A DNA stretch of 64,000 nucleotides, taken from assembly GCA_048634245.1 (NCBI GenBank), contig JAIWAR010000001.1, forward strand, positions 13,889 to 77,888, given 5' to 3'. Under the pieces are notes generated by a model, which did not search any database, was not told where the DNA came from, and was given only the letters and a program-made list of their open reading frames with translations. Each line of letters begins with the position of its first letter. Position 1 is the stretch's first letter. The position numbers and the translations under genes were made by a program. Positions 2,699 to 28,193 of this stretch are shown piece after piece. The stretch is from Methanosarcinales archaeon (lineage in GTDB: Bacteria > Omnitrophota > Gorgyraeia > Duberdicusellales > 4484-171).

Positions 2699-2703
2699 AT
2701 AAG

Positions 2704-11671: not shown

Positions 11672-11707
11672 TTGAGGTGAATAACCTCTAAAAACAAGGG
11701 GGGGCTA

Positions 11708-11896: not shown

Positions 11897-12816
11897 TTAT
11901 TTCCCAGGATCTTCCTATGATGATGAAAGAAGCGTATCACTATCCGGTTATGTATCGAGAAGTTTTAAGGTTTCTTGAGATAGAGACAAAGCGGATTGTT
12001 GTTGACTGTACTGTTGGCATTGGGTCTCATGCTTTGGGGCTGCTGGAGTCAGCGGCAGAAGACGCTTTTCTCATAGGTATTGACCGGGATCAAGATTCTC
12101 TGGATCTTGCTAAGGCGCGTCTTGAACCTTTTAGGGGAAGATTTATTCTTATTAAAGATAATTTTGCGAATTTAGACCGGATATTAGGGAAATTAGACAT
12201 AGAGGGAGTAGACGCTTTATTGTTCGATTTAGGGATTTCTACCTATCAATTAGGTAATCCCGCCCGGGGTTTTAGTTTCTTAAAAGAAGGGCCTTTGGAT
12301 ATGCGTATGGATAAGGATTCTTTTCTCTCAGCATATGATTTGGTAAATAATCTAAGTGAGATTGAGTTAGGGAATATTTTTAAGAAGTTTGGAGAAGAAC
12401 GTTATTCTCGAAGGGTGGCCCACTCTTTAGTTGAGTCAAGAAAGAATGAACCGATTTCTACGACTGTCCAGCTTGCAGATTTAATTATACGCTGTATTCC
12501 CGGTGAAGCTCGGTGGGGAAGGATTCATCCGGCAACGAGGATATTTCAGGCTTTAAGGATTGCTGTTAATAGAGAGCTGGAAGCTCTAAGAACGGCTCTC
12601 GTTCAGGCGATATCACACCTTAAATCCGGAGGAAGGATAGGGGTTATTTCTTTTCACTCTTTAGAAGACAGAATCGTTAAGCATACATATAAGGATTATT
12701 TTTCTAAGGGTATATTAAAAATTGTTACCAAGAAACCTCTTACTCCGACCGAAGAGGAGAAAAATGAAAATCCGCCGTCCCGTTCAGCTAAATTGCGGGT
12801 AGCGGAAAAGATTTAA
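11893..12816 (+). CDS. rsmH: 16S rRNA (cytosine1402-N4)-methyltransferase
   Basis: DCTVGIGSHALG SAM-binding motif. RsmH-like throughout. Confidence 0.9.
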   Translation: MIISQDLPMMMKEAYHYPVMYREVLRFLEIETKRIVVDCTVGIGSHALGLLESAAEDAFLIGIDRDQDSLDLAKARLEPFRGRFILIKDNFANLDRILGKLDIEGVDALLFDLGISTYQLGNPARGFSFLKEGPLDMRMDKDSFLSAYDLVNNLSEIELGNIFKKFGEERYSRRVAHSLVESRKNEPISTTVQLADLIIRCIPGEARWGRIHPATRIFQALRIAVNRELEALRTALVQAISHLKSGGRIGVISFHSLEDRIVKHTYKDYFSKGILKIVTKKPLTPTEEEKNENPPSRSAKLRVAEKI

Positions 12817-12826
12817 TATTTATCTT

Positions 12827-13282
12827 ATGAACTTCGTTAGAAATTTTGTTTTATCAAGCGGACAGAGCGGTATTCCTAATAAGGTAAAACCCGCTGGAGT
12901 TGCAATCTCTAACGGGATGAAAAAGCTGCTACCTTTAATTTTACCGGTTATTATATTCCTTTTCACATTGCTATATCTGCATCAAAAAGTCCAGCTTTAC
13001 GTTGAGGCCTATCGGTTGAGTAATACTTTTTATTGCCATAAGGAACTTATTGATAAGAGGGATTACTTGATGTATAATTTTGCCAAGGAAGCAACTCTGG
13101 CTAAAGTTAACCAATGGGCGATTCGAAAAGATTTTACTCCTATAGATAAAAACAGGGTAATGGCTTTGAATACGAAGAGGCAAGCACAGAGCATTAGTAA
13201 TAGCAGAGTAGCTTTATTACTTAGCCGAATCTTAAAAGCCTCAACGCCTACTTCAACCGCCTTGGCTGAAGAGAAAAGATAA
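12827..13282 (+). CDS. ftsL: Cell division protein FtsL (start probably at the internal MKKLLPL)
   Basis: Single TM helix plus a coiled-coil region. Located between rsmH and ftsI. Confidence 0.6.
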   Translation: MNFVRNFVLSSGQSGIPNKVKPAGVAISNGMKKLLPLILPVIIFLFTLLYLHQKVQLYVEAYRLSNTFYCHKELIDKRDYLMYNFAKEATLAKVNQWAIRKDFTPIDKNRVMALNTKRQAQSISNSRVALLLSRILKASTPTSTALAEEKR

Positions 13283-13319
13283 GGTTTCTTTCCGGAATCT
13301 TTAAAATTAAAAGCGAGAA

Positions 13320-14990
13320 GTGCGCAGAAAATATAATCAAAGAATAACCGGTGTATATTTTTTCTTCCTTATTTTGTTCTTTGGTATAGCTTTAAGAATC
13401 TTTTATTTACAGGTATTTAGAAGCAATTTTTTCCAGAGTTTAGCTCAAAACCAGCGTTATCGGCTCATAAATCTTCAAGGCAAAAGAGGCGATATCTTTG
13501 ATCGTCAAAAAAGGATTTTGGCTACCGGTATAAGTTGTTACTCTGTTTTTGCGGATCCGGCTTTGGTTAAAGAGCCTAATTCAACCGCAGAAATTCTTTC
13601 CGCTACTTTAAATTTGTCTAGAGAAAATTTACTTTCCAGGTTAAAGAGAAAAAAGAGGTTTATCTGGTTAAAAAGGAAAATTTCTTGGGCAGATAAAGAA
13701 AAGGTAAAATCGCATAAATTAGAAGGTATAGGTTTTATAAGGGAAGAGAGGCGATTTTATCCTCAAGATGATTTGGCCGCGGCAGTTACCGGTATTGTTA
13801 ATATCGACAACAAAGGCCTGGAGGGGCTGGAGCTGGTTTACAATGATTATTTGCACGGTAAAGATGGTTGGGTGAGAATTCTTCAGGATTCAGCTTCTCG
13901 GGAAATTATTCTTTCTTCGCAAATAATAACTCCTCAAGCAGGCGCTGATATCATCCTAAGCCTGGATGCTCAAATACAATATTGGGCTGAGGAGTATTTG
14001 GGGAGGACTGTTAAGGATTTTAAAGCGGTTTCCGGGGGCGTAGTGATAATGGATTCATCAAACGGAGAGATATTAGCTCTGGCTAATTACCCCGGCTTTA
14101 ACCCTAATGAGTTAGGAAGTATTTTACCACAGCAGATGCGTAATCGTACAGTATCAGACATGTTTGAGCCTGGCTCAGTATTTAAAGTAGCAACCCTTTT
14201 AGCCGCGGTTAATGAGAATAAAATTTCCAATGAAGATAAGTTTTTTTGTGAAAATGGTAAATTTAAAATTCCCGGTACGACTCTTCATGACTGGAAGCCT
14301 TACGGTGAGTTGACCTTTGAAGAGGTTTTTATGAAGTCAAGCAATATTGGTGTGGCAAAAATTGTTCAACTATTAGGCCCGGACATATTTTCCGGTTATT
14401 TGAAGCGGTTGGGGTTTGGCCGTTTAAGCGGTATTGATTTACCCGGAGAAGCAAAAGGTTTGGTTAAATCACTAGATAAGTGGTCGAGGACATCGGCCTA
14501 TATTATACCTATTGGCCAGGAGGTGGGGGTAAACCTTTTACAATTGGTACGTGCATTTGCCGCTGTTGTTAATGGCGGTTATTTAGTTAAGCCACATTTA
14601 GTAAAGAGTATTTGTTCTCAGGATTTTTGTGAGGAGAGTACTTTTACGAGTAAAAAGCGAATATTTCCGAAATCCAGCGCCGACAGGGCAAAAGACATTC
14701 TTATTGCTGTAGTGAGCGAAGGCACCGGAAAGCGAGCTCAAGTAAAGGGGCGCAAGATTGGCGGTAAAACCGGTACTGCTCAGAAATATGACACTAAGCT
14801 AAAGAGATATTCATCTTCGAAGTATCGAGCGACATTTGTCGGCTTTATTGCTGATTTAAATCCGCCTTTGGTAATTGGGGTTACTATAGATGAGCCTCAG
14901 CGTTCTCATTTTGGCGGAGTTGTGGCGGCGCCGGTTTTTAAAAATATTGCCCAGAAGGTTATTAAGTATATAGAAGGAGCGGGAAATTGA
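13320..14990 (+). CDS. ftsI: Peptidoglycan D,D-transpeptidase FtsI (class B PBP)
   Basis: N-terminal TM helix, then the SVFK (SxxK), SSN and KTGT motifs. Confidence 0.85.
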   Translation: MRRKYNQRITGVYFFFLILFFGIALRIFYLQVFRSNFFQSLAQNQRYRLINLQGKRGDIFDRQKRILATGISCYSVFADPALVKEPNSTAEILSATLNLSRENLLSRLKRKKRFIWLKRKISWADKEKVKSHKLEGIGFIREERRFYPQDDLAAAVTGIVNIDNKGLEGLELVYNDYLHGKDGWVRILQDSASREIILSSQIITPQAGADIILSLDAQIQYWAEEYLGRTVKDFKAVSGGVVIMDSSNGEILALANYPGFNPNELGSILPQQMRNRTVSDMFEPGSVFKVATLLAAVNENKISNEDKFFCENGKFKIPGTTLHDWKPYGELTFEEVFMKSSNIGVAKIVQLLGPDIFSGYLKRLGFGRLSGIDLPGEAKGLVKSLDKWSRTSAYIIPIGQEVGVNLLQLVRAFAAVVNGGYLVKPHLVKSICSQDFCEESTFTSKKRIFPKSSADRAKDILIAVVSEGTGKRAQVKGRKIGGKTGTAQKYDTKLKRYSSSKYRATFVGFIADLNPPLVIGVTIDEPQRSHFGGVVAAPVFKNIAQKVIKYIEGAGN

Positions 14991-16135
14991 AGAATCTAAA
15001 AATTATCGGTATTACCGGTACTAACGGCAAGACTACTACCGTATTTCTTGCTTATCACCTGCTTAAGGAAATGGGCCAGAAATCTTCATTAATAGGCACA
15101 ATAAAATATATTATTGGTTCAAAAGTATACAAAGCAAATCTTACTACTCCGGGTTTTATTGATCTTGGCAAGCTTTTAAAAAAAGCCGAAGATTCGGGCA
15201 GCCGCTTTGTGGTTATGGAAGTTTCATCTCACGCTCTTGCTCAAGGAAGGGTTAAGGGGCTAAAATTTTCTCGCTGTGTATTTACTAATTTAAGCCGAGA
15301 TCACCTTGATTACCATAAGACTTTAAATAATTATTTTAATACTAAAAAAAAGCTATTCTTTTCTCAAGGAACCCCATTTTCACTAATAAACGTTGACGAC
15401 CGATATGGGAAGAAGATATTTAAAAAAATAAAGCGGGGGTTGAGTTTTTCAATTGCAGAGCAATCTGACTTTAAGGCTGAGAATATAGTTTTAGGCAAGA
15501 GAGGTTCTTGTTTTGACCTGATCTTTTCGGGGAAGTCTTATCCGGTAAAAACCCGGCTCTGCGGGCGGCATAATGTTTTAAATATTTTAGGAGCTATAAG
15601 CCTGGTTTTTACTTTAGGTTTTTCTCTTCCAAAGTTAGTAAGAGCTGTAAGCAATTTTAAACCGGTGGAAGGAAGGTTAGAGCCGGCAGCTTCCGATATA
15701 TTTATTGACTATGCTCATACTCCCGATGCCTTGGATAATGCATTGAAAAGCCTGCGTGAGGCCGGTTACGAGAAGATTATTTGTGTTTTTGGCTGCGGTG
15801 GAGACAGGGATAAAGGTAAGCGGAGAGCAATGGGGCAAATAGCCGCGTATGAGGCGGATTTTACTTTTATCACCTCAGATAACCCTCGCAGTGAAGAACC
15901 GGGTAAGATTTGTTCTCAGGTAGAAAAAGGGTTTAAGAAGAATAACTATTTAATTATTGTTGATAGGCGCAAGGCAATAAGAGAAGCGATAAAAGTTTTT
16001 CTTAAAAATAAGGAGGGCAAATCCTGTCTTTTGATAGCGGGAAAAGGCCATGAGAATTATCAAATTATCAAGGATAAAAAGATACGATTTAGTGATAAAC
16101 GGGTAGTAAAAGAACTTTTAAACATGAAGCTATGA
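14987..16135 (+). CDS. murE: UDP-MurNAc-L-Ala-D-Glu:meso-DAP ligase lacking the usual N-terminal domain
   Basis: Starts directly at GITGTNGKTTT. Carries the MurE-specific DNPR motif. At 382 aa it is about 100 aa shorter than typical MurE. Overlaps the ftsI stop. Confidence 0.8.
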   Translation: MKNLKIIGITGTNGKTTTVFLAYHLLKEMGQKSSLIGTIKYIIGSKVYKANLTTPGFIDLGKLLKKAEDSGSRFVVMEVSSHALAQGRVKGLKFSRCVFTNLSRDHLDYHKTLNNYFNTKKKLFFSQGTPFSLINVDDRYGKKIFKKIKRGLSFSIAEQSDFKAENIVLGKRGSCFDLIFSGKSYPVKTRLCGRHNVLNILGAISLVFTLGFSLPKLVRAVSNFKPVEGRLEPAASDIFIDYAHTPDALDNALKSLREAGYEKIICVFGCGGDRDKGKRRAMGQIAAYEADFTFITSDNPRSEEPGKICSQVEKGFKKNNYLIIVDRRKAIREAIKVFLKNKEGKSCLLIAGKGHENYQIIKDKKIRFSDKRVVKELLNMKL

Positions 16136-16198
16136 TAAAATACTGTTTTTTCTCTTCCGGCACGATTTTCCCCTTCGGGTCGTCAAAAATTACCTAAA

Positions 16199-16235
16199 AA
16201 ACGCCTCCTAGCCTAACGGACTCGGCGTTTTTCTT
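16199..16235 (+). terminator. Hairpin plus T-run in the murE-murF gap (possible terminator or attenuator)
   Basis: AAACGCC...GGCGTTT forms a 7 bp stem with an 18 nt loop, followed by TTTTTC. A C(UUCG)G-type tetraloop hairpin lies just upstream at ~16170..16179. Confidence 0.3.
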
Positions 16236-16312
16236 AACGGTATTTTTTGACTAAAATCGTGGGTTGTTCAAAAACAGTATTTTATCATTGCGCTAAATAT
16301 AATATACAAAAA

Positions 16313-17680
16313 ATGATTATTTCAGATTTTAAAATTTTAGAGCGGCTCCTGAAGCCAAGCCAGATTTATAACCTCTATCATTTTAAATCTGTAAAAGGGT
16401 TTTCGCTTGACTCCCGCTCAATAGCCGGGGGTGAGGGTTTTGTGGCTGTCCGGGGTAAATACCACGATGGCCACGCTTTTATCAAAAAAGCTATAGCTAA
16501 AGGAGCCTCGTTTATTGTTGCCGAAGAGTATATACCGGTTAAGCCCAAAATTCCTTTTTTTGTTGTTGACGATACTTATCAGGCCTTAAGGTCAATTGCC
16601 GTCTATATACGTAAGAAAAAAAAGCCTTTTGTTTATGCGATTACCGGTTCGCTTGGTAAGACTACCACCAAGGAGATGCTTGGTTTTCTTCTTTCCCCTT
16701 ATTTCAAAGTTTTAACCAATAAAGGGACAGAAAATAATCTTCTCGGGGTGGTAAAGACAATTTTTTCACTTAGAGATGAGGAGATAATGATTTTGGAATT
16801 AGGAACAAATATGAAAGGAGAAATCGAGTCTTTAGCCGGGATTGCTCTTCCTGATGTAGGGGTAATTACCTTCATAAAGCCTGTCCATCTGGAAGGGCTG
16901 GGGAGTTTAAAGGGAGTTTTTAGTGAAAAAATTTCCTTGCTTAATGTTAATCCTAAGATGAAAGTTATTTTAAACCGTGATGACCCCTATTTGGCCGGGG
17001 TTAAAATGAACAAAATCTCTAACCGGGTTTATTGGTTTGGTAAAAAACGCGATAATCATCTTTTTGGGCGGCCAAGCAAAGGAATAAGCCGGAGTTCGAC
17101 TTTTCTCATTCAAGATAAGTATGAGTTAACTCTTCCTCGTTACTGCGAGGGATTTATTACTAATGTTTTAGCAGCGTTGCTTGCGGCAAGGATTGCCGGT
17201 ATTCCTTTAAAAGCGTTAGTTGAGAGAATGAATCATTTTCAGAATTTTTTGCCTTTAAGGATGCAGATAGATAAAATTAAAGGGTTTTCTATCCTAAATG
17301 ATGCTTATAATGCCAACCCTTATTCTTTTCAAGCGGCTTTTGAGAATTTGAAAAAGTGTTCTTTGAAAAAAGTAGCTGTAATCGGGGATATGTTGGAGTT
17401 GGGCAAAAGAAACAGGTATTATCATGAGCTTTTAGCCGGGCAGATTTTAAATTGTGAATTTAGCTATTGCTTAACTCTGGGAAAGCATACTTTATATTTA
17501 AACAAAAAGCTTCGAGGTTTAGGATATAAAAAAGCCTTCCATTTTATGTCTCAGGAGGCTATTGCTCAATTTATTAATAAGAGGATTGGCGTAAGCCCTC
17601 AAAACAAGAAAAGATATTTGATTTTTCTTAAAGGTTCGCGTAAGATGGAAACAGAGAAAATAATTAAATATTTAAGATGA
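16313..17680 (+). CDS. murF: UDP-MurNAc-tripeptide:D-Ala-D-Ala ligase (the ORF track starts at 16247; the conserved N-terminus begins at MIISDF)
   Basis: SLDSR...GEGFVAV and ITGSLGKTTTKEM motifs. Confidence 0.85.
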   Translation: MIISDFKILERLLKPSQIYNLYHFKSVKGFSLDSRSIAGGEGFVAVRGKYHDGHAFIKKAIAKGASFIVAEEYIPVKPKIPFFVVDDTYQALRSIAVYIRKKKKPFVYAITGSLGKTTTKEMLGFLLSPYFKVLTNKGTENNLLGVVKTIFSLRDEEIMILELGTNMKGEIESLAGIALPDVGVITFIKPVHLEGLGSLKGVFSEKISLLNVNPKMKVILNRDDPYLAGVKMNKISNRVYWFGKKRDNHLFGRPSKGISRSSTFLIQDKYELTLPRYCEGFITNVLAALLAARIAGIPLKALVERMNHFQNFLPLRMQIDKIKGFSILNDAYNANPYSFQAAFENLKKCSLKKVAVIGDMLELGKRNRYYHELLAGQILNCEFSYCLTLGKHTLYLNKKLRGLGYKKAFHFMSQEAIAQFINKRIGVSPQNKKRYLIFLKGSRKMETEKIIKYLR

Positions 17681-18759
17681 TTTATCACCTTCTTTACCCC
17701 CTAACCGAGTATTTTTCTATCTTTAATCTTACTAAATATATCACTTTCCGCAGCGGGTGCGCTTTTGTTACTTCTTTTATTGTTGTAATGATGCTTTGGA
17801 AAGTTACCTTAAAGAGATTGAAGAAACTAAAGATAGTAGAGAAAATAGATATGTACGGCCACGTTCATTTGGAAGCTCTTCATGAAGAGAAAAAAGGGAC
17901 TCCTACTATGGGTGGAGTTTTGATTCTTTTTGCAGTTTTGGTAACTACTCTTCTTTGGGGCAGATGGGATAATCATTTTATTTGGCTGGTTATCCTGGTC
18001 ACTATTTCTTTAGGCAGTTTGGGGTTATGCGATGATTTTCTAAAGGTTAAGCGGGGTAAAGGCCTAAGCCGGGGTAAGAAGCTATTTTGGCAGAGTTTAA
18101 TCGGAGTGTTGCTGGGGGTATTGATCGTAGCCAGCAAAAACTTTCCCACCACCTGGAGTTTTCCTTTTCTAAAGAAAGTGGTAGTCGATTTGGGTTATTT
18201 TTATATTTTCTGGGCCGCGCTTATGGTTGTGGCTGCCTCTAATGCGGTTAATTTTACTGACGGCCTTGACGGCCTGGCAATCGGAGCCTTAATCGGAAAC
18301 TTTTTAATTTTTGGATTTTTAAGTTATATTGTCGGGCATATGAAGTTTGCCGATTATCTCTTTATTCCTTACATAAAGGGCGCCGGGGAGTTAACTGTTT
18401 TTTGTTTTTCTCTGATGGGGGCCGGCTTAGCTTTCCTGTGGTTTAATTCTTATCCTGCCGAGGTTTTTATGGGGGATGTTGGCGCTTTAGCTTTAGGCGG
18501 AGCTATCGGGGCGATAGCCCTGCTAATAAAACAAGAATTTCTTCTTTTTATAAGCGGGGGATTATTTGTAATTGAGGCTTTAAGTGTTATTTTGCAGATG
18601 TTATCGGTAAAATTTAGAGGCAAGAGACTATTCAAAGCTGCTCCTTTGCACCATCATTTTCAAGTAGTGGGCTGGAAAGAGCCCAAGATAATTATTCGTT
18701 TTTGGATTGTTTCAATTCTGTGTGCAGTCATAGCTTTAATTACCCTTAAAGTACGGTGA
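17677..18759 (+). CDS. mraY: Phospho-N-acetylmuramoyl-pentapeptide transferase
   Basis: Polytopic membrane protein with the MraY motifs (GTPTMGG, NAVNFTDGLDGLA). Confidence 0.9.
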   Translation: MIYHLLYPLTEYFSIFNLTKYITFRSGCAFVTSFIVVMMLWKVTLKRLKKLKIVEKIDMYGHVHLEALHEEKKGTPTMGGVLILFAVLVTTLLWGRWDNHFIWLVILVTISLGSLGLCDDFLKVKRGKGLSRGKKLFWQSLIGVLLGVLIVASKNFPTTWSFPFLKKVVVDLGYFYIFWAALMVVAASNAVNFTDGLDGLAIGALIGNFLIFGFLSYIVGHMKFADYLFIPYIKGAGELTVFCFSLMGAGLAFLWFNSYPAEVFMGDVGALALGGAIGAIALLIKQEFLLFISGGLFVIEALSVILQMLSVKFRGKRLFKAAPLHHHFQVVGWKEPKIIIRFWIVSILCAVIALITLKVR

Positions 18760-20024
18760 GAATCGACGATTTTAAAGAGATCTGCGTTGTCGGTTGGGGG
18801 AGGAGTGGAATTTCCCTTTGCAATCTGCTTTTAAGATTGGGGAAAAAAGTGCGGATTAGTGAGATAGCAGAGGCCGGTTCTTTTCCCGATCAGCTGATTA
18901 ATGATTTTATTAAAAAAGGGGTAAAGGTTGAATTTGGCGGCCATAGCGAAAAGTTTATAAAAGCGGCCAAATTATTAGTTTTAAGCCCCGGAGTAAATCC
19001 GGATCGTTCTCCGCTTTCAGAGATTGCCCAAACCCACAATATACCTTGTGTAGGGGAGATAGAGTTTTCTTCCTGGTTAACCCGGGCAAAGCTAATAGCG
19101 ATTACAGGCACTAACGGCAAGACTACCACAGCCCATCTGATTTACCAGTTGCTTAAACAGAGGAAAAAACGGGTTTTTCTCGGAGGCAATATCGGCATTC
19201 CTTTTTCCTCTTTTGTCTTAGATGCTAAAAAAGGAGATTTTATCGTTTTAGAAGTGAGTTCTTTTCAACTGGAGACTATAGTTGAATTTAGGCCTTATGT
19301 GGCTGCCTTTTTGAATATTGAACCTGACCATCTTGATCGTTATCCGGATTTCAGGGATTATTTTCAGGCCAAGCTAAATATATTTAAAAATCAAGAAAAA
19401 GGCGATTGGGCTATCCTGAATAAAAATATGGATTTTTGTACGCAGGTTAAGAAAGCTGTAAAATGTCAAACAGTTTATTTTTCCGAAGAGTTTCCCAATG
19501 AAAATTTTTCCTGTGCTTATAGAATTGCCGCTGTTTTTGGTCTAGGAAAGGCTGACTGCGGCAGCATCTTCTCTCATTTTTTGGGCCTTCCACATCGCCT
19601 GCAGCAAATTCGGCAGATAAACAAAGTAACTTTTATTAATGATTCTAAAGCCACAAACCCTTCTTCTACAGCCTGGGCTCTTTCTAATACCAAGGCTCCG
19701 ATAATCCTTCTCGCCGGAGGCCGCGACAAGGGGTTAGATTACTCTTTAATCCCGTCCTTCTTAAAGAAGATAAAAAAGGTAAATCTTTTTGGAGAAGCTT
19801 CAGTCAAGATAAAAGAGGCTTTGGGCTTTAAGATAGAGGTTGAGATTTTTCCATCATTAGAGGAAGCGGTTTTGTCTTCTCACCGGGAAGCAGTGCCCGG
19901 AGATACGATTCTTCTTTCTCCCATGTGTGCCAGCTTTGATATGTTTTCCGATTACGAAGATAGAGGCAATAAGTTTACAGAAATCGTGAATAACCTTCCT
20001 TGCACCCCCGAGGTGCAAGGATAA
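18756..20024 (+). CDS. murD: UDP-MurNAc-L-Ala:D-Glu ligase
   Basis: N-terminal Rossmann motif VVGWGRSG and the ITGTNGKTTT motif. Confidence 0.9.
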   Translation: MRIDDFKEICVVGWGRSGISLCNLLLRLGKKVRISEIAEAGSFPDQLINDFIKKGVKVEFGGHSEKFIKAAKLLVLSPGVNPDRSPLSEIAQTHNIPCVGEIEFSSWLTRAKLIAITGTNGKTTTAHLIYQLLKQRKKRVFLGGNIGIPFSSFVLDAKKGDFIVLEVSSFQLETIVEFRPYVAAFLNIEPDHLDRYPDFRDYFQAKLNIFKNQEKGDWAILNKNMDFCTQVKKAVKCQTVYFSEEFPNENFSCAYRIAAVFGLGKADCGSIFSHFLGLPHRLQQIRQINKVTFINDSKATNPSSTAWALSNTKAPIILLAGGRDKGLDYSLIPSFLKKIKKVNLFGEASVKIKEALGFKIEVEIFPSLEEAVLSSHREAVPGDTILLSPMCASFDMFSDYEDRGNKFTEIVNNLPCTPEVQG

Positions 20025-20032
20025 TTTAAGTT

Positions 20033-21136
20033 ATGGTGGGTTTAAAGAGAGAGAGAAGATTTTTGGCTATAGCATTTCTGGCTTTAACTCTTTTTGGTAT
20101 TCTTATGATTTACGAATCATCAAGTGTATACGCGTTTAAGGCTGAAAAAGATGCCGCTTATTTTTTTAAACGGCAGTTTCTTTTCTTTCTTGTGGGCGTA
20201 TTTTTCTTCTTTATTACACTTTTAGCCGATTTAGAATTTTTAAGGCGGCATAGCAAGGAGTTTTTGCTTTTTACTTTCTTTTGCCTGGTGCTGATTATTT
20301 TTATTGGGAAGAAAGCCGGGGGAGCAAAGAGGTGGCTGCAATTAGGATCGTTTGGTTTTCAGCCTTCGGAAATGCTAAAGATTTCTTTTCTGCTTTATTG
20401 CGCGGATTATTGCCGAAGAAAACGAAGCCTTATAAAGAATGTTAGGCTGGGACTTTTTCCTTTGGGGATTGTTTTGTCCGCGGTATGCATTTTGCTTATT
20501 GTACAGCCGGATTTAGGAACAGCTGTTTTTTGGGTTCTTTGGACCATTCTTTTTCTTTTTCTCTTTGGTGCCCGGAAAAAGCATTTAGTTTTTGTTATTT
20601 TGACCGGAGCGACTATATCTTTTTTTCTTATAAAACTATATCCCTATCGTTTGAACCGAATCGTTGCTTATCTTAACCCCTTTGATGATCCCAGGGGGGC
20701 AGGGTTTCAATTGATTCAGTCTCAGATTGCTTATGGAGTTGGAGGTGTTTGGGGAGTGGGGTTAGGTGAAGGCTTGCAGAAGTTGCTTTTTTTGCCGGCG
20801 GCTCATACTGATTTTATTTTTTCAATTATTGCTGAGGAGTTTGGCCTTTGGGGTTCATTGGGTTTAATCTTTATCTTTTTTCTGATATTTCATAAGATGT
20901 CTAAAATCGCGGAATCTTCCCAGGATAGTTTTCGCAGGGGCCTTTTATGGGGCATAATCCTTATTTTTTTTCTAGAGATAGCGATAAATATTGGGGTTAG
21001 TTGCGGCCTTTTTCCTACCAAAGGGCTGCCTTTGCCTTTTATGAGCTACGGGGGAAGTAATTTAGTTGTTCACTGTATTCTTCTAGGCTTATTTTTTAAC
21101 GCTTCCCGCATTGACAAACCCAATACCGCTTATTGA
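20033..21136 (+). CDS. ftsW: SEDS-family peptidoglycan polymerase FtsW
   Basis: Ten-TM SEDS topology. Conserved FtsW/RodA motifs (PDLGTA, HTDFIFS, GLFPTKGLPLPF). Confidence 0.9.
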   Translation: MVGLKRERRFLAIAFLALTLFGILMIYESSSVYAFKAEKDAAYFFKRQFLFFLVGVFFFFITLLADLEFLRRHSKEFLLFTFFCLVLIIFIGKKAGGAKRWLQLGSFGFQPSEMLKISFLLYCADYCRRKRSLIKNVRLGLFPLGIVLSAVCILLIVQPDLGTAVFWVLWTILFLFLFGARKKHLVFVILTGATISFFLIKLYPYRLNRIVAYLNPFDDPRGAGFQLIQSQIAYGVGGVWGVGLGEGLQKLLFLPAAHTDFIFSIIAEEFGLWGSLGLIFIFFLIFHKMSKIAESSQDSFRRGLLWGIILIFFLEIAINIGVSCGLFPTKGLPLPFMSYGGSNLVVHCILLGLFFNASRIDKPNTAY

Positions 21137-21142
21137 GAATTT

Positions 21143-21167
21143 TTGATCAAAGCCAGGCTTTGATCAA
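21143..21167. promoter_or_regulatory. Perfect 25 bp palindrome TTGATCAAAGCC-A-GGCTTTGATCAA, 7 nt after the ftsW stop
   Basis: The 12 bp arms are exact reverse complements. A related copy lies at 39199..39223. Confidence 0.7.
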
Positions 21168-21198
21168 GATAAAAACAACTATAGCGTTAAAATAACCC

Positions 21199-21227
21199 TT
21201 GAACGAGGGCTACAATTTCTTTATAAT
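21199..21227 (+). promoter_or_regulatory. Putative internal sigma70-type promoter upstream of murG (TTGAAC - 17 nt - TATAAT)
   Basis: -35 element at 21199..21204, -10 element at 21222..21227. Confidence 0.45.
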
Positions 21228-21282
21228 ATTAAATACAGGTTCAATTTATCCCCGTAAAATAAGAGTTATTTTTGAAAGATAA

Positions 21283-22299
21283 ATGAAAGTATTATTAGCT
21301 TGCGAGAGAAGTGCCGGCCATATTTTTCCGGCTTTAGCGCTGGGTGAGAAAATAGAAAAAAAATCTAATATTTATTTTTTTGCTACTTCACCCTTTCTTA
21401 AAAAATACATCGAAAAACAAGGGTTTAATTGTTTTGGCAAGAGCTTAGTTTTCCGAAACTTAATTATTGAGGGTACCTGGCGTTTATTTGAGTCTATATA
21501 CCTTATTCTAAAATTGAGGCCGGAGAAAGTTATTGGATTCGGCGGCCGGGATTCATTTTTTCTGGTTTTATTCAGCTCTTTATTAAGGATAAGAACCGTT
21601 ATCTATGAGCCTAATATAAAGCTGGGAAAGGCAAACAGATTTCTTATGCCTTTTGTGGATGAGGTGTTGCGCGGTTTTGAAGGGGGAAGGGGTAAAAAGG
21701 GCAGAACTATCGGTATTCCTTTACGGAAAAATATAAAGAAAATAGATAAGTGCCAGGCTCGGAAGATTTTGAATTTTAAGGAGGAACCGGTTATCTTTTG
21801 TCTCGGAGGTAGTCAAGGTTCGTCTTTTCTTAATCATGTATTTGTAAGGTTTATCCAGAATTTTAAAGGGAATTGCCAGGTAATCCATCTTACCGGAAAG
21901 GATGAGTATCCGGAGATGCTATCCCGATATGCTGAAATAAAGAACAGGAGCTTTGTCAAAGATTTTTATTACCAGGTAGAGGTTTTATACAGCGCTGCTG
22001 ACTTAGTGGTTTCCCGGGCCGGAGCGGTTACTTTGGGAGAAATTTCATTTTATGGACTGCCGGTTATTTTGCTGCCTCATTTTAAGGCTGGCAGCCATCA
22101 GGTGGAAAATGCTTTGTATTTCGAAAGAAAAGGGGCAGCTAAGGTGTATTCGCAGGATGAGTTTTCTTTTGAAGATTTTAGCCGTTCGCTCAATAGGCTT
22201 ATCGAGGATAAGTGTTTGCGCCAAACTATGAAGGATAATTTAGGGAGGATAAAATTAGGGGTTAGCTATGAGGATTTTAATAATAGCAATTATTTTTAG
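21283..22299 (+). CDS. murG: Undecaprenyldiphospho-muramoylpentapeptide beta-N-acetylglucosaminyltransferase
   Basis: GT28 fold. N-terminal ERSAGHIFPALAL motif. Confidence 0.85.
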   Translation: MKVLLACERSAGHIFPALALGEKIEKKSNIYFFATSPFLKKYIEKQGFNCFGKSLVFRNLIIEGTWRLFESIYLILKLRPEKVIGFGGRDSFFLVLFSSLLRIRTVIYEPNIKLGKANRFLMPFVDEVLRGFEGGRGKKGRTIGIPLRKNIKKIDKCQARKILNFKEEPVIFCLGGSQGSSFLNHVFVRFIQNFKGNCQVIHLTGKDEYPEMLSRYAEIKNRSFVKDFYYQVEVLYSAADLVVSRAGAVTLGEISFYGLPVILLPHFKAGSHQVENALYFERKGAAKVYSQDEFSFEDFSRSLNRLIEDKCLRQTMKDNLGRIKLGVSYEDFNNSNYF

Positions 22300-23086
22300 T
22301 ATACTTACCAGTAGTTTCGGTTTCCGGAGAGAAGAAGGCGGGTGTGTTTTTGCAAAACAGAAAGAATTTAATCAGTTGCGCTCTGAACATTTTATAATTA
22401 GCTATAGAGAAGGTGTTGATAAATCATATGTTAGAAAGATAAAGAATATAGCTGAGAAGTATTATCGGATTATAACCCAGGCTTTTAATTTTCACCGGGA
22501 TGAATTCTGGATATGGGAGAATCGGGCTAAGGTTTTTATAGCTAATGACAGGGACGATTACTTAAATAGTTTTAGCTGCGCTCCCTGGTCAACCGCTTGT
22601 GTTCATCATCGCGTGAAGAAAATTTATATTTATCCCGACCAAAAGAATTTTGCCCCCGTTTTTATTCACGAGCTGACTCATATAATTTTTCGTGAACATA
22701 TAGGAGAAGGTGATTTTCCTCTTTGGCTGGATGAGGGGGTTGCTTGTTATATGGAAGATAAGTATGGAGATGGAAATTATAAGAGGGCGCTTAATTTTCT
22801 AAAGAGAAAAATAAAAGATGATACTTATATAAAATTTTCCCAACTAAATAAAGGGACAAGTGATAATTTAGGAGGGAAAGGTGAAGAATATATTAATCTT
22901 TTTTACCTGGAGTCGTTTTCCATAATTAATTTTATTATGAAAAGATATGGGAAGTATAGATTTTCCAGCTTCCTTCGTTTATTGAAGAAGGGGAAAAGAA
23001 TAGAAGAAGCAATGGCTAAGGTTTTTTACGATTTTAAGGATCTCGATAAGTTGGAGGCTAAGTGGAAGGATTACTATCTAAAGTAA
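22268..23086 (+). CDS. Secreted putative zinc metalloprotease (HExxH) inserted between murG and murC
   Basis: Signal peptide. HELTHIIF...EG gluzincin-like motif. No close family recognised. Confidence 0.45.
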   Translation: MRILIIAIIFSILTSSFGFRREEGGCVFAKQKEFNQLRSEHFIISYREGVDKSYVRKIKNIAEKYYRIITQAFNFHRDEFWIWENRAKVFIANDRDDYLNSFSCAPWSTACVHHRVKKIYIYPDQKNFAPVFIHELTHIIFREHIGEGDFPLWLDEGVACYMEDKYGDGNYKRALNFLKRKIKDDTYIKFSQLNKGTSDNLGGKGEEYINLFYLESFSIINFIMKRYGKYRFSSFLRLLKKGKRIEEAMAKVFYDFKDLDKLEAKWKDYYLK

Positions 23087-24459
23087 AGAATATTTATCTG
23101 GTAGGTATCGGCGGAATAGGTATGAGCGGTTTGGCTCTTCTTCTTAAAGATAGAGGCTTTCAGGTTAGAGGCTCAGATAGCAAGGATTCAACAAACGTAA
23201 GAATGTTAAGAGACCGGGGTATCAAAGTTTTTATCGGCCATAGAGAGAGCCAGGTTAGTCGTGATATTGATATTTTAGGCTATTCTTCGGCGGTAGATGA
23301 AGAGAACCCCGAGATCATTCAGGCAAAGAAAAAAGGTTTAAATATTTTTAAGAGAGCCGAACTTTTAGCTGAGCTTTGCAGGGGGAGAAAAACAATTGCT
23401 ATCTCCGGCAGTCACGGGAAGACTACTACTACTTCGTTATTAGGGTATCTTCTTACTTCTTTGGGATATAAGCCGGCAGTATTTGTAGGAGGAATATCTC
23501 TTAATTACTCCCGGGGGGCCTGGTGGGGAGATGATTATTTTGTTATTGAGGCTGATGAGAGTGACGGGAGTTATCTTTGTTTTGACCCCTGGGTGTCTAT
23601 AATTACTAATGTTGACCGTGAACACCTTGATTACTATGGGAGTTTAGAAAAGTTAAGAAAAAGCTTTTTAAAATTTGCTAAAGAAACTCGAGGTAAGGTT
23701 ATAGTTTTCGGTGATGACCCTCATTTAGCAGAAATTTTTTCAGGTATAGATATAGACGGAATTACTTTTGGCTGGGGGAAACAGAATACTTTAGGGGGGA
23801 TGAATTTTAGATTCGATGGTGAATTTAGCTGTTTTGATTTATATATAAAGGAAAAGTTTATTACTTCAGTCAAAACTCCTCTTGTAGGCAGGTACAATTG
23901 CCTTAACACCCTGGCTGTTTTTGCTTTTTTCTATTATTTAGGCGAAGATTTAGAGAAAGTCAAGCAAGCTCTTTTAGATTTTAAGGGAACGAAAAGGCGC
24001 TTTGAAGTAAAGGGGAAAATCAAAGGCGTGACTTTTATTGATGATTATGCTCATCATCCTACAGAAATCAAAGCGGTTTTAAGCGCCGGCAGGCTTTTAA
24101 ACCCTAAGCGTTTATTCGTAATTTTTCAGCCTCATCGTTTCTCGCGGGTTAGTTCATTAAGGCCTGAATTTGTCCAATGCTTTTTTGAAACAGACCACTT
24201 GGTGGTAACTGACATTTATACAGCCTCAGAAGAGAATACATTTGGGGTTAGTGCCAAGAAGCTGGCAGAAGAGACGGGTAAATGTTCAGCTGTTAAGGCA
24301 GAATATATTCCTAAGAATGAACTTATTGCCGGTATTACTTCCCGGCTTAAAGATGGGGATCTTGTATTGGCTTTAGGCGCCGGAGATATAAATATTATGA
24401 TGGAGGATATTCGCAGGTGTTTTCACGAAAGAACGGGTTTAAAAAAGACGTTGATTTAA
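23062..24459 (+). CDS. murC: UDP-N-acetylmuramate:L-alanine ligase
   Basis: GIGGIGMSGLA and ISGSHGKTTTT motifs. Confidence 0.9.
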   Translation: MEGLLSKVKNIYLVGIGGIGMSGLALLLKDRGFQVRGSDSKDSTNVRMLRDRGIKVFIGHRESQVSRDIDILGYSSAVDEENPEIIQAKKKGLNIFKRAELLAELCRGRKTIAISGSHGKTTTTSLLGYLLTSLGYKPAVFVGGISLNYSRGAWWGDDYFVIEADESDGSYLCFDPWVSIITNVDREHLDYYGSLEKLRKSFLKFAKETRGKVIVFGDDPHLAEIFSGIDIDGITFGWGKQNTLGGMNFRFDGEFSCFDLYIKEKFITSVKTPLVGRYNCLNTLAVFAFFYYLGEDLEKVKQALLDFKGTKRRFEVKGKIKGVTFIDDYAHHPTEIKAVLSAGRLLNPKRLFVIFQPHRFSRVSSLRPEFVQCFFETDHLVVTDIYTASEENTFGVSAKKLAEETGKCSAVKAEYIPKNELIAGITSRLKDGDLVLALGAGDINIMMEDIRRCFHERTGLKKTLI

Positions 24460-25271
24460 GAAATTACACTTCAATAAAGATAGGAGGCAGGGCAAAGTAT
24501 TTTTATACTGCCCTGGACCTTGATTGTTTGCGTAGGATTGTTCAGGATATCGGCTCAGATTTTTACCTTTTAGGTAAGGGATCTAATCTTCTTATAAAGG
24601 ATTGTCTGATCTGGAATCCGATAATAAAATTAGGAGATAATTTCAGTTTTATAAAAAAAAAAGGTAACTATTTAGAAGTAGGCGCTTCGACTCCCCTTTC
24701 TTCTTTAATTAAATATTGCCTGGAAAAAGATCTCTTAGGGTTAGAGAATTTAGCGGGTATCCCGGCTACGGTAGGGGGCCTTTTAGCTATGAATGCTGCT
24801 TCTTTTGGCAGAAGTATTTCCGCGGTTGTTGAAGAAGTTACTGTTATGAGCCGGGAGAGTGATATCAAGAAACTTAAAAGTTCGGAGATTTCCTTTGGGT
24901 ATAGGTCTTCAACTCTCGAGAAGTATATTGTTTTAGAGGCCAAATTTAAATTATTTTCAGGAAAAAATTTAAAGCAAAAGGTAGGTGAATTGCTGGCGAG
25001 GCGCCTTGGTCTACAAGACTTTGATTCTCCCAACTGCGGATGTATTTTTAAAAATACTCCGGAGTTTAGCGCGGGTTTTCTTGTTGATTCCTGTCATCTT
25101 AAGGGGCAGCGATGCGGTGGTGCCCAAATTTCTCCGCGGCACGCTAATTTTATTATTAATTTAGGTTCAGCTAAATATAAAGATGTTGCGTATCTGATTC
25201 AAAAGATTAAAGACCAAGTTTATAAAAAGCATAGTATAATCTTACAGGAAGAAATTAAACGCTGGAAATAA
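24417..25271 (+). CDS. murB: UDP-N-acetylenolpyruvoylglucosamine reductase
   Basis: FAD-binding N-terminus (NYTSIKIGGRAKYF). MurB-like C-terminus. Confidence 0.85.
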   Translation: MFSRKNGFKKDVDLRNYTSIKIGGRAKYFYTALDLDCLRRIVQDIGSDFYLLGKGSNLLIKDCLIWNPIIKLGDNFSFIKKKGNYLEVGASTPLSSLIKYCLEKDLLGLENLAGIPATVGGLLAMNAASFGRSISAVVEEVTVMSRESDIKKLKSSEISFGYRSSTLEKYIVLEAKFKLFSGKNLKQKVGELLARRLGLQDFDSPNCGCIFKNTPEFSAGFLVDSCHLKGQRCGGAQISPRHANFIINLGSAKYKDVAYLIQKIKDQVYKKHSIILQEEIKRWK

Positions 25272-25298
25272 AAGAGTTCATAGTACATAGAGCTAATT

Positions 25299-26225
25299 AT
25301 GAAGATAGGAATTTTAGGCGGAGGCATATCAACGGAGAGAGAGATTTCACTTACTTCGGCAAAACAAGCTTATGAAGCTTTGGTCAATAAAGGCCTGAAT
25401 GTTGTTTTTGTTGATATTTTTACTAAAGAGGAAAACGAAGTTAAAAAACTTATCCGCAGCCTAAATATTGATTTAGCTTTTATTGCTCTTCACGGAGAAT
25501 TTGGCGAAGATGGCCGGGTCCAGGAGATTTTAGAAAGTTTAGGTGTTGCTTATACCGGTTCAGGGCCGCGGGCGAGCGCTTTGGCAATGGACAAAATTTG
25601 CTCTAAAGAAGCCTTCAAAGCCAAGAAGGTTCCTAACCCCAATTTTTCAATTTGTTTGAAAGGAGAAAGCATTTGGGCAAAGATTGATTATCCGCTGGTG
25701 GTAAAACCCTGTTCCTCCGGTTCCAGTATAGGCGTTTCTATCGTAAGAGATAGGAGTTTTTTTAAACCGGCGCTTGAGCTGGCTTTTTCTTATTCGGACA
25801 GAGTGATTTTAGAGGAGTATATTGAAGGTAGAGAATTGACGGTTGGGATTTTGGATGATCAGCCTTTAACAATAGTTGAAATTCTTCCTAAAAAAGAACA
25901 TTTTGATTTTGATGCTAAATATAGCAAAGGGATGTGTGATTTTATTGCTCCGGCTTCCTTAGATGAGAGTCTCAGCAGCCAAATCAAGAGTGTAGGTTTA
26001 GCTGCTTATAAGGCTTTGGGGTGCCGGCATTTTTCCCGCGTAGATATCCGTTTAGACAAAAACAACTCTCCCTTTGTTTTAGAGGTTAATACGATACCAG
26101 GGCTGACTCTTCACAGTCTTTTTCCGCTGGCAGCTAAGTGTGCGGGAATCAATTTTGATAATTTAATTCTTAAAATGGTAGAGTTAGCTTTACCCCGTTA
26201 CAAATTAGGAGCGGTAACGGGGTAA
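25299..26225 (+). CDS. ddl: D-alanine--D-alanine ligase
   Basis: ATP-grasp fold. Ddl motifs (HGEFGEDG, VKP...GSSIGV). Confidence 0.9.
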   Translation: MKIGILGGGISTEREISLTSAKQAYEALVNKGLNVVFVDIFTKEENEVKKLIRSLNIDLAFIALHGEFGEDGRVQEILESLGVAYTGSGPRASALAMDKICSKEAFKAKKVPNPNFSICLKGESIWAKIDYPLVVKPCSSGSSIGVSIVRDRSFFKPALELAFSYSDRVILEEYIEGRELTVGILDDQPLTIVEILPKKEHFDFDAKYSKGMCDFIAPASLDESLSSQIKSVGLAAYKALGCRHFSRVDIRLDKNNSPFVLEVNTIPGLTLHSLFPLAAKCAGINFDNLILKMVELALPRYKLGAVTG

Positions 26226-26250: not shown

Positions 26251-27051
26251 ATGAGAAGAAAGAAGCGCAAAAGGTTTAAGCAATTTAATTTTCATTTAGA
26301 TCCTAAACTAAGCCGATGGGGGAGCCTGGCCTTTTGTTGCCTTATCCTTCTTATCGGAATAGGGTATGCTATCTATACCTCCGGTGTTTTCAAAATAAAA
26401 AAAGAAGATATAAAATCTAACCTTTTTTTGAGTAGGAGCTTAAAAGAAAAAATAAAGGGTAAATCTTTATTCGATGTAGATATTAAATCGCTTTCTTCAA
26501 CCTTCGTAAGAGCGCACCCCGAATATAAAGAAGTCTATGTTTATCGGGTGTTTCCTTCTTGTTTAAAAATTGACGGAGTCGAGAGAATACCTTTTGCCCA
26601 GATAAAAGATAGAAGATTTTACCCGGTAGATAAGGAAGCGATTGTATTAAATGAAGGCAGCCGCCAACTCCTGGATAATCTTATTTTAATAGAGATTGGC
26701 AGTAATAGCCGTAGCCTTAAAAAAGGAAGTAGTGTCAAAAGCAGGAGATTAGAGTATGCTTTTGATTTAATTGAAGCCATAAATGAAGAGGATTTTCTTA
26801 ATGAAGGCCGGGTTGCGCTGATAAACGCCAGTAGCTTAGAGGCTATTGATTTTATCTTTATCCGGAAAAGTTGTGATGCCGGAGACGGCCTTAGCTGTAG
26901 CGGAATAAGGGTAAAAGTGGGCAGGGGTGATTTCAAGCGGAAACTCAAGCTCTTTAAAAACCTTATGGATGATGAGTTAGAAGGCAAGATGTCCTTACTT
27001 AAGTATATAGACCTAAGGTTTAAGAAAGTATATATGGATTTTAAAAGATGA
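26251..27051 (+). CDS. ftsQ: Cell division protein FtsQ/DivIB
   Basis: N-terminal TM helix plus POTRA-like region. Located between ddl and ftsA. Confidence 0.7.
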   Translation: MRRKKRKRFKQFNFHLDPKLSRWGSLAFCCLILLIGIGYAIYTSGVFKIKKEDIKSNLFLSRSLKEKIKGKSLFDVDIKSLSSTFVRAHPEYKEVYVYRVFPSCLKIDGVERIPFAQIKDRRFYPVDKEAIVLNEGSRQLLDNLILIEIGSNSRSLKKGSSVKSRRLEYAFDLIEAINEEDFLNEGRVALINASSLEAIDFIFIRKSCDAGDGLSCSGIRVKVGRGDFKRKLKLFKNLMDDELEGKMSLLKYIDLRFKKVYMDFKR

Positions 27052-28193
27052 GAGGAGTTTGTGCTATTGCTCTAGACAGAGATAAAACTTTTATCTCTTT
27101 TGCGCGCCTCAAGCGAGGTCAGCTTACTTTTCTTGAAGAATCAGAAATTCCTGTTGTAAATTCCGGCGACGATATCGTTTTTTTCTTAAAAGAGAATTTT
27201 GAAACTTTAGATCGAAGGATAAAAGAAGTCGAAGGGAAGTATTCTTGCCGGTGTGAGAAGATTTTTTTAGAATTACCCTGGGAGGCCGCTAAGAGCAAAA
27301 TTGTTGAAGAGACAGTTACTTTAAAGGCACGAAAGAAAATTACTTCCGGGGATATCTCGCGGGCCAAAAAGTACATTGAAGACAAATTTCTCAGCTGGGA
27401 TGATTTTTGTATTCATAATATTGTTATAAACTATGGAATAGAGGACCTTAACTACGAGAAGCCCCCTTTAGGAGTATGGGCAAAGAAGATTAAATTGCAA
27501 TTACTTCTGGTTTGGATTAAAGATAAGATACAAAGGGAGACCGAAGATATTTTTGATAATTTAGATAGAAAATTTGGTGCTATGATTGCTCCCCAAATTA
27601 GTAGATTTTCTTCTGTTTTCACCGGTAAGGATAAAGGGCAGGGTGTGGTTAGCATTGATTACGACCAAAGCCGATTTATAGCCAGAAGCAAAAATAATTT
27701 TATTTTTGGCAAAGGATTCAGTTTTTCTTTTCGCGGAGTAATTGAGCAATTGGCAAAGAGATTTATCCTGGGAACTTCTTTGGCTGAGGAAATATTCCAG
27801 CGCTATATCTCCTTTAAAGAGATACCGTATTTTAAGGAGATAACAGTTAAAGACGCATCCGGCTATGTAAATCTAAGTATTCAGGCTCTCAATTCGTTTA
27901 TTAAAAATTATATTAAGGGTGAAATTTGTTACATCTTGCAAGAAATAAGAGAAGATGTTACCAACGATGATTTTACGATTTCATTCGTTGGCAGATTAAA
28001 CGCTAAAGAGGGGTTTTATGGGTTTTTAAAAAATCACATTCCCTACCCTTTTAAAACTCCGCTTCAGAGATTAACAATTTCGTCTTCTTACGGATGCTTA
28101 CGCTACGGGGTATCTCGTTTTTTAGAAGTTGATCATAAAAATAATGGGTCAGGGTTTCGCCGCATTTTGGATATATATCGTGAATATTTTTAA
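27048..28193 (+). CDS. ftsA: FtsA-like actin-fold protein with degenerate nucleotide-binding motifs
   Basis: CAIALDRDKT resembles the phosphate-1 loop. The region matching phosphate-2 (DIGGGTTD in canonical FtsA) reads VVSIDYDQSRF. C-terminal FSFRGVIEQLAKRFILGTSLAEEIFQRY matches the FtsA adenosine motif region. Confidence 0.55.
   Translation: MRGVCAIALDRDKTFISFARLKRGQLTFLEESEIPVVNSGDDIVFFLKENFETLDRRIKEVEGKYSCRCEKIFLELPWEAAKSKIVEETVTLKARKKITSGDISRAKKYIEDKFLSWDDFCIHNIVINYGIEDLNYEKPPLGVWAKKIKLQLLLVWIKDKIQRETEDIFDNLDRKFGAMIAPQISRFSSVFTGKDKGQGVVSIDYDQSRFIARSKNNFIFGKGFSFSFRGVIEQLAKRFILGTSLAEEIFQRYISFKEIPYFKEITVKDASGYVNLSIQALNSFIKNYIKGEICYILQEIREDVTNDDFTISFVGRLNAKEGFYGFLKNHIPYPFKTPLQRLTISSSYGCLRYGVSRFLEVDHKNNGSGFRRILDIYREYF

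Follow-up and report, generated by a model that had tools for sequence, protein, structure and literature searches.

Within the superphylum of Planctomycetes, Verrucomicrobia and Chlamydiae (PVC), the Planctomycetes and Chlamydiae have lost ftsZ and kept peptidoglycan and divisome genes, and chlamydial division depends on MreB/RodZ. In a figure legend of Pende et al. 2021 (PMC8178401), FtsZ is given as absent from Planctomycetes, Omnitrophica and Chlamydiae, with FtsA and SepF also absent from Planctomycetes and Chlamydiae. Here we describe a division locus of the Omnitrophota, a PVC lineage that is reported likewise to have lost ftsZ and kept peptidoglycan and divisome genes but, unlike Chlamydiae and Planctomycetes, keeps FtsA. 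The locus lies in a stretch of 64,000 nucleotides (the window; contig JAIWAR010000001.1, positions 13,889 to 77,888 of the forward strand), where a division and cell wall (dcw) cluster ends at an FtsA-like gene that an initial annotation had described as degenerate, followed by no ftsZ and possibly caught in an unusual intermediate state. We find that this gene is an ortholog of ftsA whose product has lost all three nucleotide-binding motifs, that it is conserved across a subfamily, and that ftsZ is absent at the locus. The range 26251-28193 consists of two genes that overlap by 4 bases:

26251-27051, plus strand: ftsQ, 266 amino acids (aa); FtsQ_DivIB_C match with E 2.8e-5, POTRA_1 weak
27048-28193, plus strand: FtsA-like gene, 381 aa, beyond which the cluster has no recognisable division gene

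Identity of the 381-aa protein

Canonical FtsA, as represented by the structures from E. coli (7Q6D), Vibrio maritimus (7Q6F), S. aureus (3WQT) and T. maritima (4A2A), has an actin-like fold with the SHS2/1C subdomain in place of 1B, an S..G...YG helix near the C-terminus, and then a flexible linker leading to an amphipathic helix that ends in ...(K/R)E(Y)F; its gene immediately follows ftsQ, at the far end of the dcw cluster. The model of the 381-aa protein has the same type of fold, the S..G...YG helix, linker and terminal helix are kept, and the gene occupies the same position, directly after ftsQ in every related locus whose upstream region is covered. The protein differs from canonical FtsA in its identity of 12-16% in structural alignments, in the replacement of the three motifs, in its failure to reach the Pfam FtsA and TIGR01174 thresholds, and in having no FtsZ partner encoded nearby or, according to the literature, in the phylum.

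A Pfam scan of the 381-aa protein gave no match to FtsA (PF14450) and an SHS2_FTSA match of 18.8 bits over residues 82-155, below the cut-off of 25.4, and the collinear match to TIGR01174 (35.1 bits, E 7.8e-9) falls short of the cut-off of 175.85. When a profile built from 42 family sequences was compared with the PDB, FtsA was the best match (E. coli 7Q6D, E 4.6e-9), with PilM at E 0.5. An AlphaFold model of high confidence (predicted local distance difference test, pLDDT, 89.4; predicted template modelling score, pTM, 0.87) retrieved FtsA chains at Foldseek ranks 1-19 (E 4e-25 to 2e-19, template modelling (TM) scores of 0.63-0.72 over 366-391 columns), followed by PilM (~1e-15 at TM ~0.5) and MreB (~1e-10). 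BLASTP connects the protein, at E 4e-10, with P0225, which bears the NCBI name cell division protein FtsA, Candidatus Omnitrophota bacterium.

The initial annotation had asked whether the protein belongs with FtsA, PilM or MreB. A divergence so great that Pfam yields nothing above a sub-threshold SHS2_FTSA match could be taken as a sign of PilM, MreB or some other actin-fold protein that merely happens to be located after ftsQ, and PilM is indeed the closest fold relative outside FtsA and also has a 1C-like subdomain. PilM, however, binds PilN and sits in pilus operons; the 381-aa gene lies in no pilN/pilO operon, PilM is neither its best fold match nor its best profile match, and the window has a true PilM elsewhere:

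2704-4212: PilM-PilN fusion, 502 aa, within a cluster (88-4763) with pseudopilins (type II secretion system G/J/K-like) and a PilO-like gene

PilM is ruled out by the profile E of 0.5, the TM of ~0.5 and this separate gene, and MreB by its Foldseek value as against those of FtsA. The gene position and a C-terminal EYF tail, described below, are also common to Omnitrophota proteins that pass Pfam FtsA. The explanation is effectively refuted: profile, predicted fold, BLASTP and the separate PilM-PilN, along with gene position and the C-terminal amphipathic helix, make the gene at 27048-28193 an ortholog of ftsA. Scoring below the cut-offs of Pfam FtsA and TIGR01174 and listed at NCBI as 'hypothetical protein', the subfamily goes unrecognised, and FtsA is under-called in these genomes.

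For the 381-aa protein, 85 homologs were found, with identities of 37-97% and, in nearly all cases, a length of ~381 aa; those that carry names belong to Candidatus Omnitrophota/Omnitrophica, apart from one labelled Candidatus Babeliales. A scan for FtsA-like loci in one genome per GTDB species returned 33 loci, all from Omnitrophota metagenome-assembled genomes or from such genomes labelled 'uncultured Planctomycetia' whose synteny agrees. Candidatus Susulua stagnicola (69% identity) is represented among the loci, as are the complete chromosomes CP070797.1 and CP070807.1. The source organism is a Candidatus Omnitrophota bacterium.

Motif loss and conservation

The features of the FtsA-like gene discussed in this section are the following:

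27063..27095, plus strand: phosphate-1 remnant AIALDRDKTFI, instead of (D/E)-I-G-T/S-x-K
27645..27677, plus strand: phosphate-2 remnant VVSIDYDQSRF, residues 200-210, instead of VVDIGGGTMDI
27801..27851, plus strand: RYISFKEIPYFKEITVK, residues 252-268, the most conserved stretch of the subfamily
27978..28016, plus strand: adenosine-motif remnant ISFVGRLNAKEGF, instead of VLTGGAAQIEGL
28149..28190, plus strand: C-terminal amphipathic helix SGFRRILDIYREYF, a candidate membrane-targeting sequence after a low-confidence linker

The phosphate-2 region had already been singled out as aberrant, and it does lie opposite VVDIGGGTMDI of E. coli FtsA in both the HMMER (PDB 7q6d) and the MAFFT alignments. 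The degeneration goes further than had been claimed, for the other two motifs are replaced as well: MAFFT sets AIALDRDKT against GLEIGTAKV of E. coli at phosphate-1 and FVGRLNAKEG against LTGGAAQIEG at the adenosine motif, the middle part of the E. coli sequence used here being independently confirmed by the HMMER alignment to 7Q6D. Intact phosphate-1, phosphate-2 (DxGGGT) and adenosine (GG) motifs, as expected of FtsA, are all missing, and the residues that replace the three glycine-rich loops are bulky or charged (D, R, K, Y, Q, L). Judged by these motifs, the ability to bind ATP has probably been lost. A comparable condition is found in TsaB/YeaZ, a catalytically dead member of the actin/HSP70/sugar-kinase fold that has kept the fold as a protein-binding scaffold after losing its nucleotide motifs; as its subfamily and function are unrelated to those of the window FtsA, it may serve as an analogy only.

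The C-terminal end is better preserved. In the MAFFT alignment SGFRRILDIYREYF coincides with the membrane-targeting sequence of E. coli FtsA, SWIKRLNSWLRKEF, and the hydrophobic moment of the window helix is 0.72 versus 0.57 for E. coli. In the AlphaFold model a helix at residues 369-380 is preceded by a linker of pLDDT <50, and across the 42-sequence alignment the final YF of the tail is invariant and the E nearly so. These properties point to a predicted membrane-targeting helix behind a flexible linker, through which the window FtsA would bind the membrane. In MAFFT the conserved stretch RYISFKEIPYFKEITVK is set against KVRHGCALGS of E. coli FtsA, a sequence that we tentatively assign to the beginning of subdomain 2B, by which canonical FtsA binds the FtsZ tail. 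The stretch so assigned contains a motif, RYISFKEIPYFKEIT, that is strongly conserved in the subfamily and differs from the canonical sequence.

The distribution of the motifs was examined by running the family profile with HMMER over 1.84 billion representative proteins, which gave 1334 matches at E <=1e-3, 71 of them at <=1e-30. The best 150 of the 1334 matches, from which the motif counts are taken, comprise two groups, 58 full-length representatives of the window subfamily (50% identity) and 75 more conventional proteins. The window subfamily ends in ...YF in 56 of 58 cases; the phosphate-1 signature [DE][ILVM]G and the DxGGG of phosphate-2 occur in none of the 58, a vestigial phosphate-2 DxG is found in six, and a single member has the GG of the adenosine motif. 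The conventional proteins are ~400-415 aa long, score 66-115 bits and pass both Pfam FtsA and SHS2_FTSA. Most retain the phosphate-1 signature (57/75) and the adenosine GG (55/75), whereas phosphate-2 is almost always DIG(A/S)xxT instead of DIGGGT; a ...Y-x-(E/D)-Y-F end is present in 64 of the 75, and the sole two members with DxGGG are without the tail. The two conventional proteins that bear names are both from Omnitrophota.

At the six loci examined for the conventional group, the gene lies in the same dcw cluster, which in five has an extra Peptidase_MA_2 gene inserted. At five of the six the cluster stops at ftsA and is followed by radical SAM, RHS toxin, YggS-like, MgtE or response regulator genes; at the sixth (L041) the contig ends ~500 bases past ftsA. 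Conventional Omnitrophota FtsA, such as P0225, is thus like the window protein in its dcw context with Peptidase_MA_2, in its place as the last gene of the cluster with no ftsZ after it, and in its ...Y-x-(E/D)-Y-F tail, and unlike it in being mostly reduced in phosphate-2 only, whereas the window subfamily is without all three motifs. Taking together the two named proteins and the shared dcw synteny with the Peptidase_MA_2 insert, on which the assignment of the EYF tail to the Omnitrophota is based, the tail and the DIG(A/S)xxT form of phosphate-2 look like phylum-wide peculiarities of Omnitrophota FtsA. One further protein, P0279, had been picked as a 'canonical FtsA' control locus for an adjacent ftsZ; it lies outside any dcw cluster and was of no use as a control.

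It could be argued that the pocket of the window FtsA has been remodelled and continues to bind ATP or another nucleotide, and that the protein polymerises and cycles as an ordinary FtsA does. The model, of high confidence, preserves the fold as a whole, a few subfamily members have the vestigial DxG, and the conventional Omnitrophota FtsAs retain phosphate-1 and adenosine motifs. Against this, bulky or charged residues have taken over all three glycine-rich loops, the counts of 0/58, 0/58 and 1/58 leave next to nothing of the signatures, and Pfam FtsA does not recognise the protein; we regard such a pocket as unlikely.

Nor does the gene look like a functionless relic that has been decaying since the loss of ftsZ. 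Such decay might be read from the lost catalytic motifs and from a ratio of nonsynonymous to synonymous substitution rates (dN/dS) that reaches 0.32 against the closest relative, at 98.4% identity, above core genes and comparable to those of murB (0.27) and murG (0.23). The gene has no frameshifts or stops, however, and its length of ~381 aa is nearly constant across sequences down to 37% identity; in the 42-sequence alignment 13 positions do not vary and 40 hardly vary, and dN/dS is 0.12-0.16 in the better-sampled pairs without synonymous saturation (L003-L005, L004-L006 and L005-L007). Constant length, invariant residues and dN/dS together indicate purifying selection and a stable state, so that the 'intermediate state' of the initial annotation does not hold and a decaying relic is extremely unlikely.

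Absence of ftsZ at the locus and a proposed role of FtsA

The gene that follows the FtsA-like gene is not ftsZ. In a tblastn search of the 64 kb of the window, the best match to E. coli FtsZ had an E of 1.1, and the six frames contain no match to the tubulin signature, in agreement with the initial annotation; Pfam scans of 59 of the larger open reading frames (ORFs) found no Tubulin/FtsZ, Min, SepF or ZapA family. The related genomes, which the annotation had proposed to check, give the same picture. E. coli and B. subtilis FtsZ had no tblastn match at E <=0.1 in 44 sequences (43 loci and the window, 809 kb), at six FtsA loci of more remote Omnitrophota the annotated genes include no Tubulin/FtsZ family, and ftsZ was not found within ~10 kb of the orthologous gene in ~40 related loci. 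At the FtsA locus, ftsZ is absent across the phylum.

The supplementary note of Seymour et al. 2023 (PMC10066038), covering 421 genomes, describes Omnitrophota as being without ftsZ except for one copy, which is 89% identical to an archaeal protein and represents an archaeal-like contaminant; the orthology tables of that paper, in the portion for two genomes, list mreB, mreC, ftsI and ftsQ and not ftsZ, with ftsA called in one of the two. A table in Pende et al. 2021 shows no FtsZ in four of five 'Omnitrophica' and FtsA in three of those four, and the fifth genome, OLB16 (NCBI taxid 1617433), is now placed in Candidatus Hinthialibacterota. According to published surveys, then, Omnitrophota have lost ftsZ and kept peptidoglycan and divisome genes (ftsI, ftsW, ftsQ, mur). 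The FtsZ-less state is already published, neither prominently nor consistently, for two PVC reviews by Rivas-Marin and Devos (PMC5147048, PMC5945725) credit Omnitrophica with FtsZ; since their claim rests on OLB16, now in another phylum, this conflict in the PVC literature is resolved. The suspicion of an FtsZ-less lineage agrees with these reports, and the condition is a published trait of the phylum, not a peculiarity of a single genome that had gone unremarked.

A different situation would obtain if ftsZ were located elsewhere in the genome, division were canonical and the FtsA-like gene encoded a fast-evolving but ordinary FtsZ tether. The stretch examined is 64 kb, ftsZ is separated from ftsA in some bacteria, and the two reviews would agree with such a view. 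It is hard to reconcile with a single archaeal-like copy among 421 genomes, with the lack of FtsZ in four of the five genomes of Pende et al. 2021 and the reclassification of the fifth, and with ~40 loci that have no ftsZ near ftsA, and we consider it very unlikely.

We favour, with a probability of roughly 0.6, the reading that the window FtsA is a membrane-anchored, nucleotide-independent scaffold of the divisome in FtsZ-less Omnitrophota. In E. coli, FtsA has an FtsZ-independent function in which the 1C subdomain contacts late divisome proteins. The window FtsA, having kept its place after ftsQ, the FtsA-specific fold with SHS2/1C and the C-terminal amphipathic helix, and being without the glycine-rich phosphate-1, phosphate-2 and adenosine loops, would act as a scaffold that needs no nucleotide. 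Located on the cytoplasmic face of the membrane, it may support assembly or activation of the FtsQ-FtsW-FtsI complex for septal wall synthesis without a Z ring, with constriction placed and driven by another system, perhaps MreB, on which Chlamydia relies. In one of the loci, L038, mreB lies near the dcw cluster.

Several points weigh against this reading. We infer, for the window FtsA, the binding to the membrane, the interaction with FtsQ, FtsW and FtsI and the role as scaffold or activator, and the loss of ATP binding is deduced from the motifs. For the source genome the evidence on ftsZ consists of the 64 kb of the window and of a genome-wide claim taken from the literature; in that literature the two reviews speak for FtsZ in Omnitrophica, and a 2025 paper calls the dcw genes highly conserved in Omnitrophota. 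The dN/dS of 0.32 against the closest relative, moreover, exceeds the values for ftsW, murC and mraY, and constraint on the FtsA-like gene may be somewhat relaxed.

In Omnitrophota, by the published surveys, FtsZ is gone and FtsA is kept under purifying selection, a complementary case that suggests a job for FtsA independent of FtsZ and, probably, of ATP. Across the phylum, FtsA ranges from a partly eroded ATP-binding site to one wholly lost, and this natural series sets apart, in a testable way, what FtsA does independently of FtsZ (as a membrane scaffold and in activating septal wall synthesis) from its roles in tethering FtsZ and those that depend on ATP. In the literature searched we found no paper describing the state of the retained Omnitrophota FtsA. 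Apparently undescribed there are the shared EYF tail, the phosphate-2 in the form DIG(A/S)xxT, and a subfamily that has lost all three motifs yet is under purifying selection; what is new is this pseudo-ATPase subfamily of FtsA and the graded erosion of the motifs, the FtsZ-less state of the phylum being already published.

The dcw cluster and neighbouring genes

Upstream of ftsQ the cluster (11234..26225) consists of the following genes, assigned by Pfam where not stated otherwise:

starts 11234, plus strand: mraZ, first gene of the canonical dcw cluster
starts 11893, plus strand: rsmH
starts 12827, plus strand: 151-aa ORF at the ftsL position, without Pfam match
starts 13320, plus strand: ftsI
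14987-16135, plus strand: Mur ligase at the murE position
starts 16247, plus strand: Mur ligase at the murF position
starts 17677, plus strand: mraY
starts 18756, plus strand: murD
starts 20033, plus strand: ftsW
starts 21283, plus strand: murG
22268-23086, plus strand: Peptidase_MA_2 gene, extra, inserted between murG and murC
starts 23062, plus strand: murC
starts 24417, plus strand: murB
starts 25299, plus strand: ddl

As the initial annotation had it, the order from mraZ through ddl and ftsQ is canonical and tight: the ORF listing shows co-directional genes, with most junctions overlapping or a few bases apart. The order, including the Peptidase_MA_2 insert, recurs in the gene tables of other Omnitrophota loci. 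Peptidase_MA_2 stands between murG and murC also in L002, L036-L039, L041 and L043, distant lineages included, and L040 has a 671-aa protein without Pfam match at the usual position; its presence in almost every Omnitrophota dcw locus examined suggests that the insert is a signature of the phylum. Counted from a TTG start, the Mur ligase at the murE position has only 382 aa, with the middle and C-terminal domains and no N-terminal domain, and its ORF begins 4 bases ahead of the ftsI stop.

Downstream of the FtsA-like gene lie:

28214-30148, plus strand: 644-aa protein, no Pfam family
30138-31475, plus strand: HD-GYP-type protein (HD_5, 64.5 bits, E 1.3e-17)
31480-32598, plus strand: glycosyltransferase resembling monogalactosyldiacylglycerol (MGDG) synthase (Pfam)
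32598-33446, plus strand: lipid A acyltransferase-like gene (Pfam), with housekeeping genes beyond

The next gene does encode a mostly helical protein of 644 aa, as had been stated. Its 61 homologs include none with a Pfam domain, and all that carry a phylum name are from Omnitrophota. The model (pLDDT 86, pTM 0.47) consists of an alpha/beta domain at the N-terminus (residues 1-145) and, behind it, an all-helical solenoid, for which structure searches returned generic HEAT/ARM/ENTH-like repeats only; the protein is a helical-repeat scaffold. Its neighbour carries the sequence signatures expected of an HD-GYP protein, HDIGK at residue 247 (30876) and GGYPK at residue 309 (31062), and its first 136 residues share homology with the N-terminal domain of the 644-aa protein (hhalign probability 96.9%, E 1.5e-10; BLASTP cross-hits). 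No Pfam family matched this shared domain of ~135 residues.

Among the 33 species loci fetched, 30 extend past the FtsA-like gene and three end too early. In 24 of these 30 the FtsA-like gene is succeeded by the 644-aa/HD-GYP pair; the pair is missing in L011, L012, L014 and L015, L027 has another arrangement, and L018 and L019 have a response regulator and another HD-GYP protein in its stead. Such response regulator and HD-GYP genes occupy 11331-12986 in L018 (CP070797.1) and 14582-16176 in L001/L026 (CP070807.1), and by this recurrence signalling genes of the cyclic di-GMP (c-di-GMP) type are a repeated neighbour of the dcw end. The most constant downstream neighbours in the species loci are the MGDG-synthase-like and acyltransferase genes. 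The initial annotation had joined the degenerate FtsA and the signalling proteins behind it into one arrangement. The succession itself recurs, but, as the pair is lacking or replaced in some loci, it is a frequent and not an obligatory neighbour, and any functional link to FtsA or to division is putative.

These neighbours would acquire more weight if the FtsA-like protein had been co-opted from division into c-di-GMP signalling or envelope biogenesis, acting with the 644-aa and HD-GYP proteins or with the lipid enzymes. The genes are co-directional and tightly packed, a promoter/terminator scan, which was not clearly enriched over shuffles, showed no convincing terminator in the gap behind the FtsA-like gene, and both the frequency of the pair, with its counterparts in L018 and L019, and the constancy of the lipid genes would fit. 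Yet the pair is absent from four loci and replaced in L027, the more distant Omnitrophota FtsAs are followed by unrelated genes, and the constant partner of the gene is ftsQ upstream, with the rest of the dcw cluster. A co-option of this kind seems improbable to us.

In a bolder variant of the scaffold reading, the nucleotide-independent FtsA would itself organise, from the cytoplasm, a divisome that has no Z ring. The EYF-tailed helix would let it polymerise or cluster on the membrane, 1C would recruit FtsQ, FtsW and FtsI, and the RYISFKEIPYFKEIT surface, at the presumed site of FtsZ-tail binding in canonical FtsA, would dock a new partner; candidate partners would be the HEAT-like 644-aa scaffold and its HD-GYP paralog, which would put constriction under c-di-GMP control. 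We think this quite unlikely.

Two other genes of the window have unusual domain arrangements. A SpoVG homolog at 50416-50823, just upstream of a tRNA-Gln gene (50844-50918), has a zinc-ribbon insertion (~residues 52-77) within the SpoVG domain. A glutamine synthetase at 37512-39047 on the minus strand, the sole large minus-strand gene of the stretch, carries an N-terminal HTH_17 DNA-binding domain.

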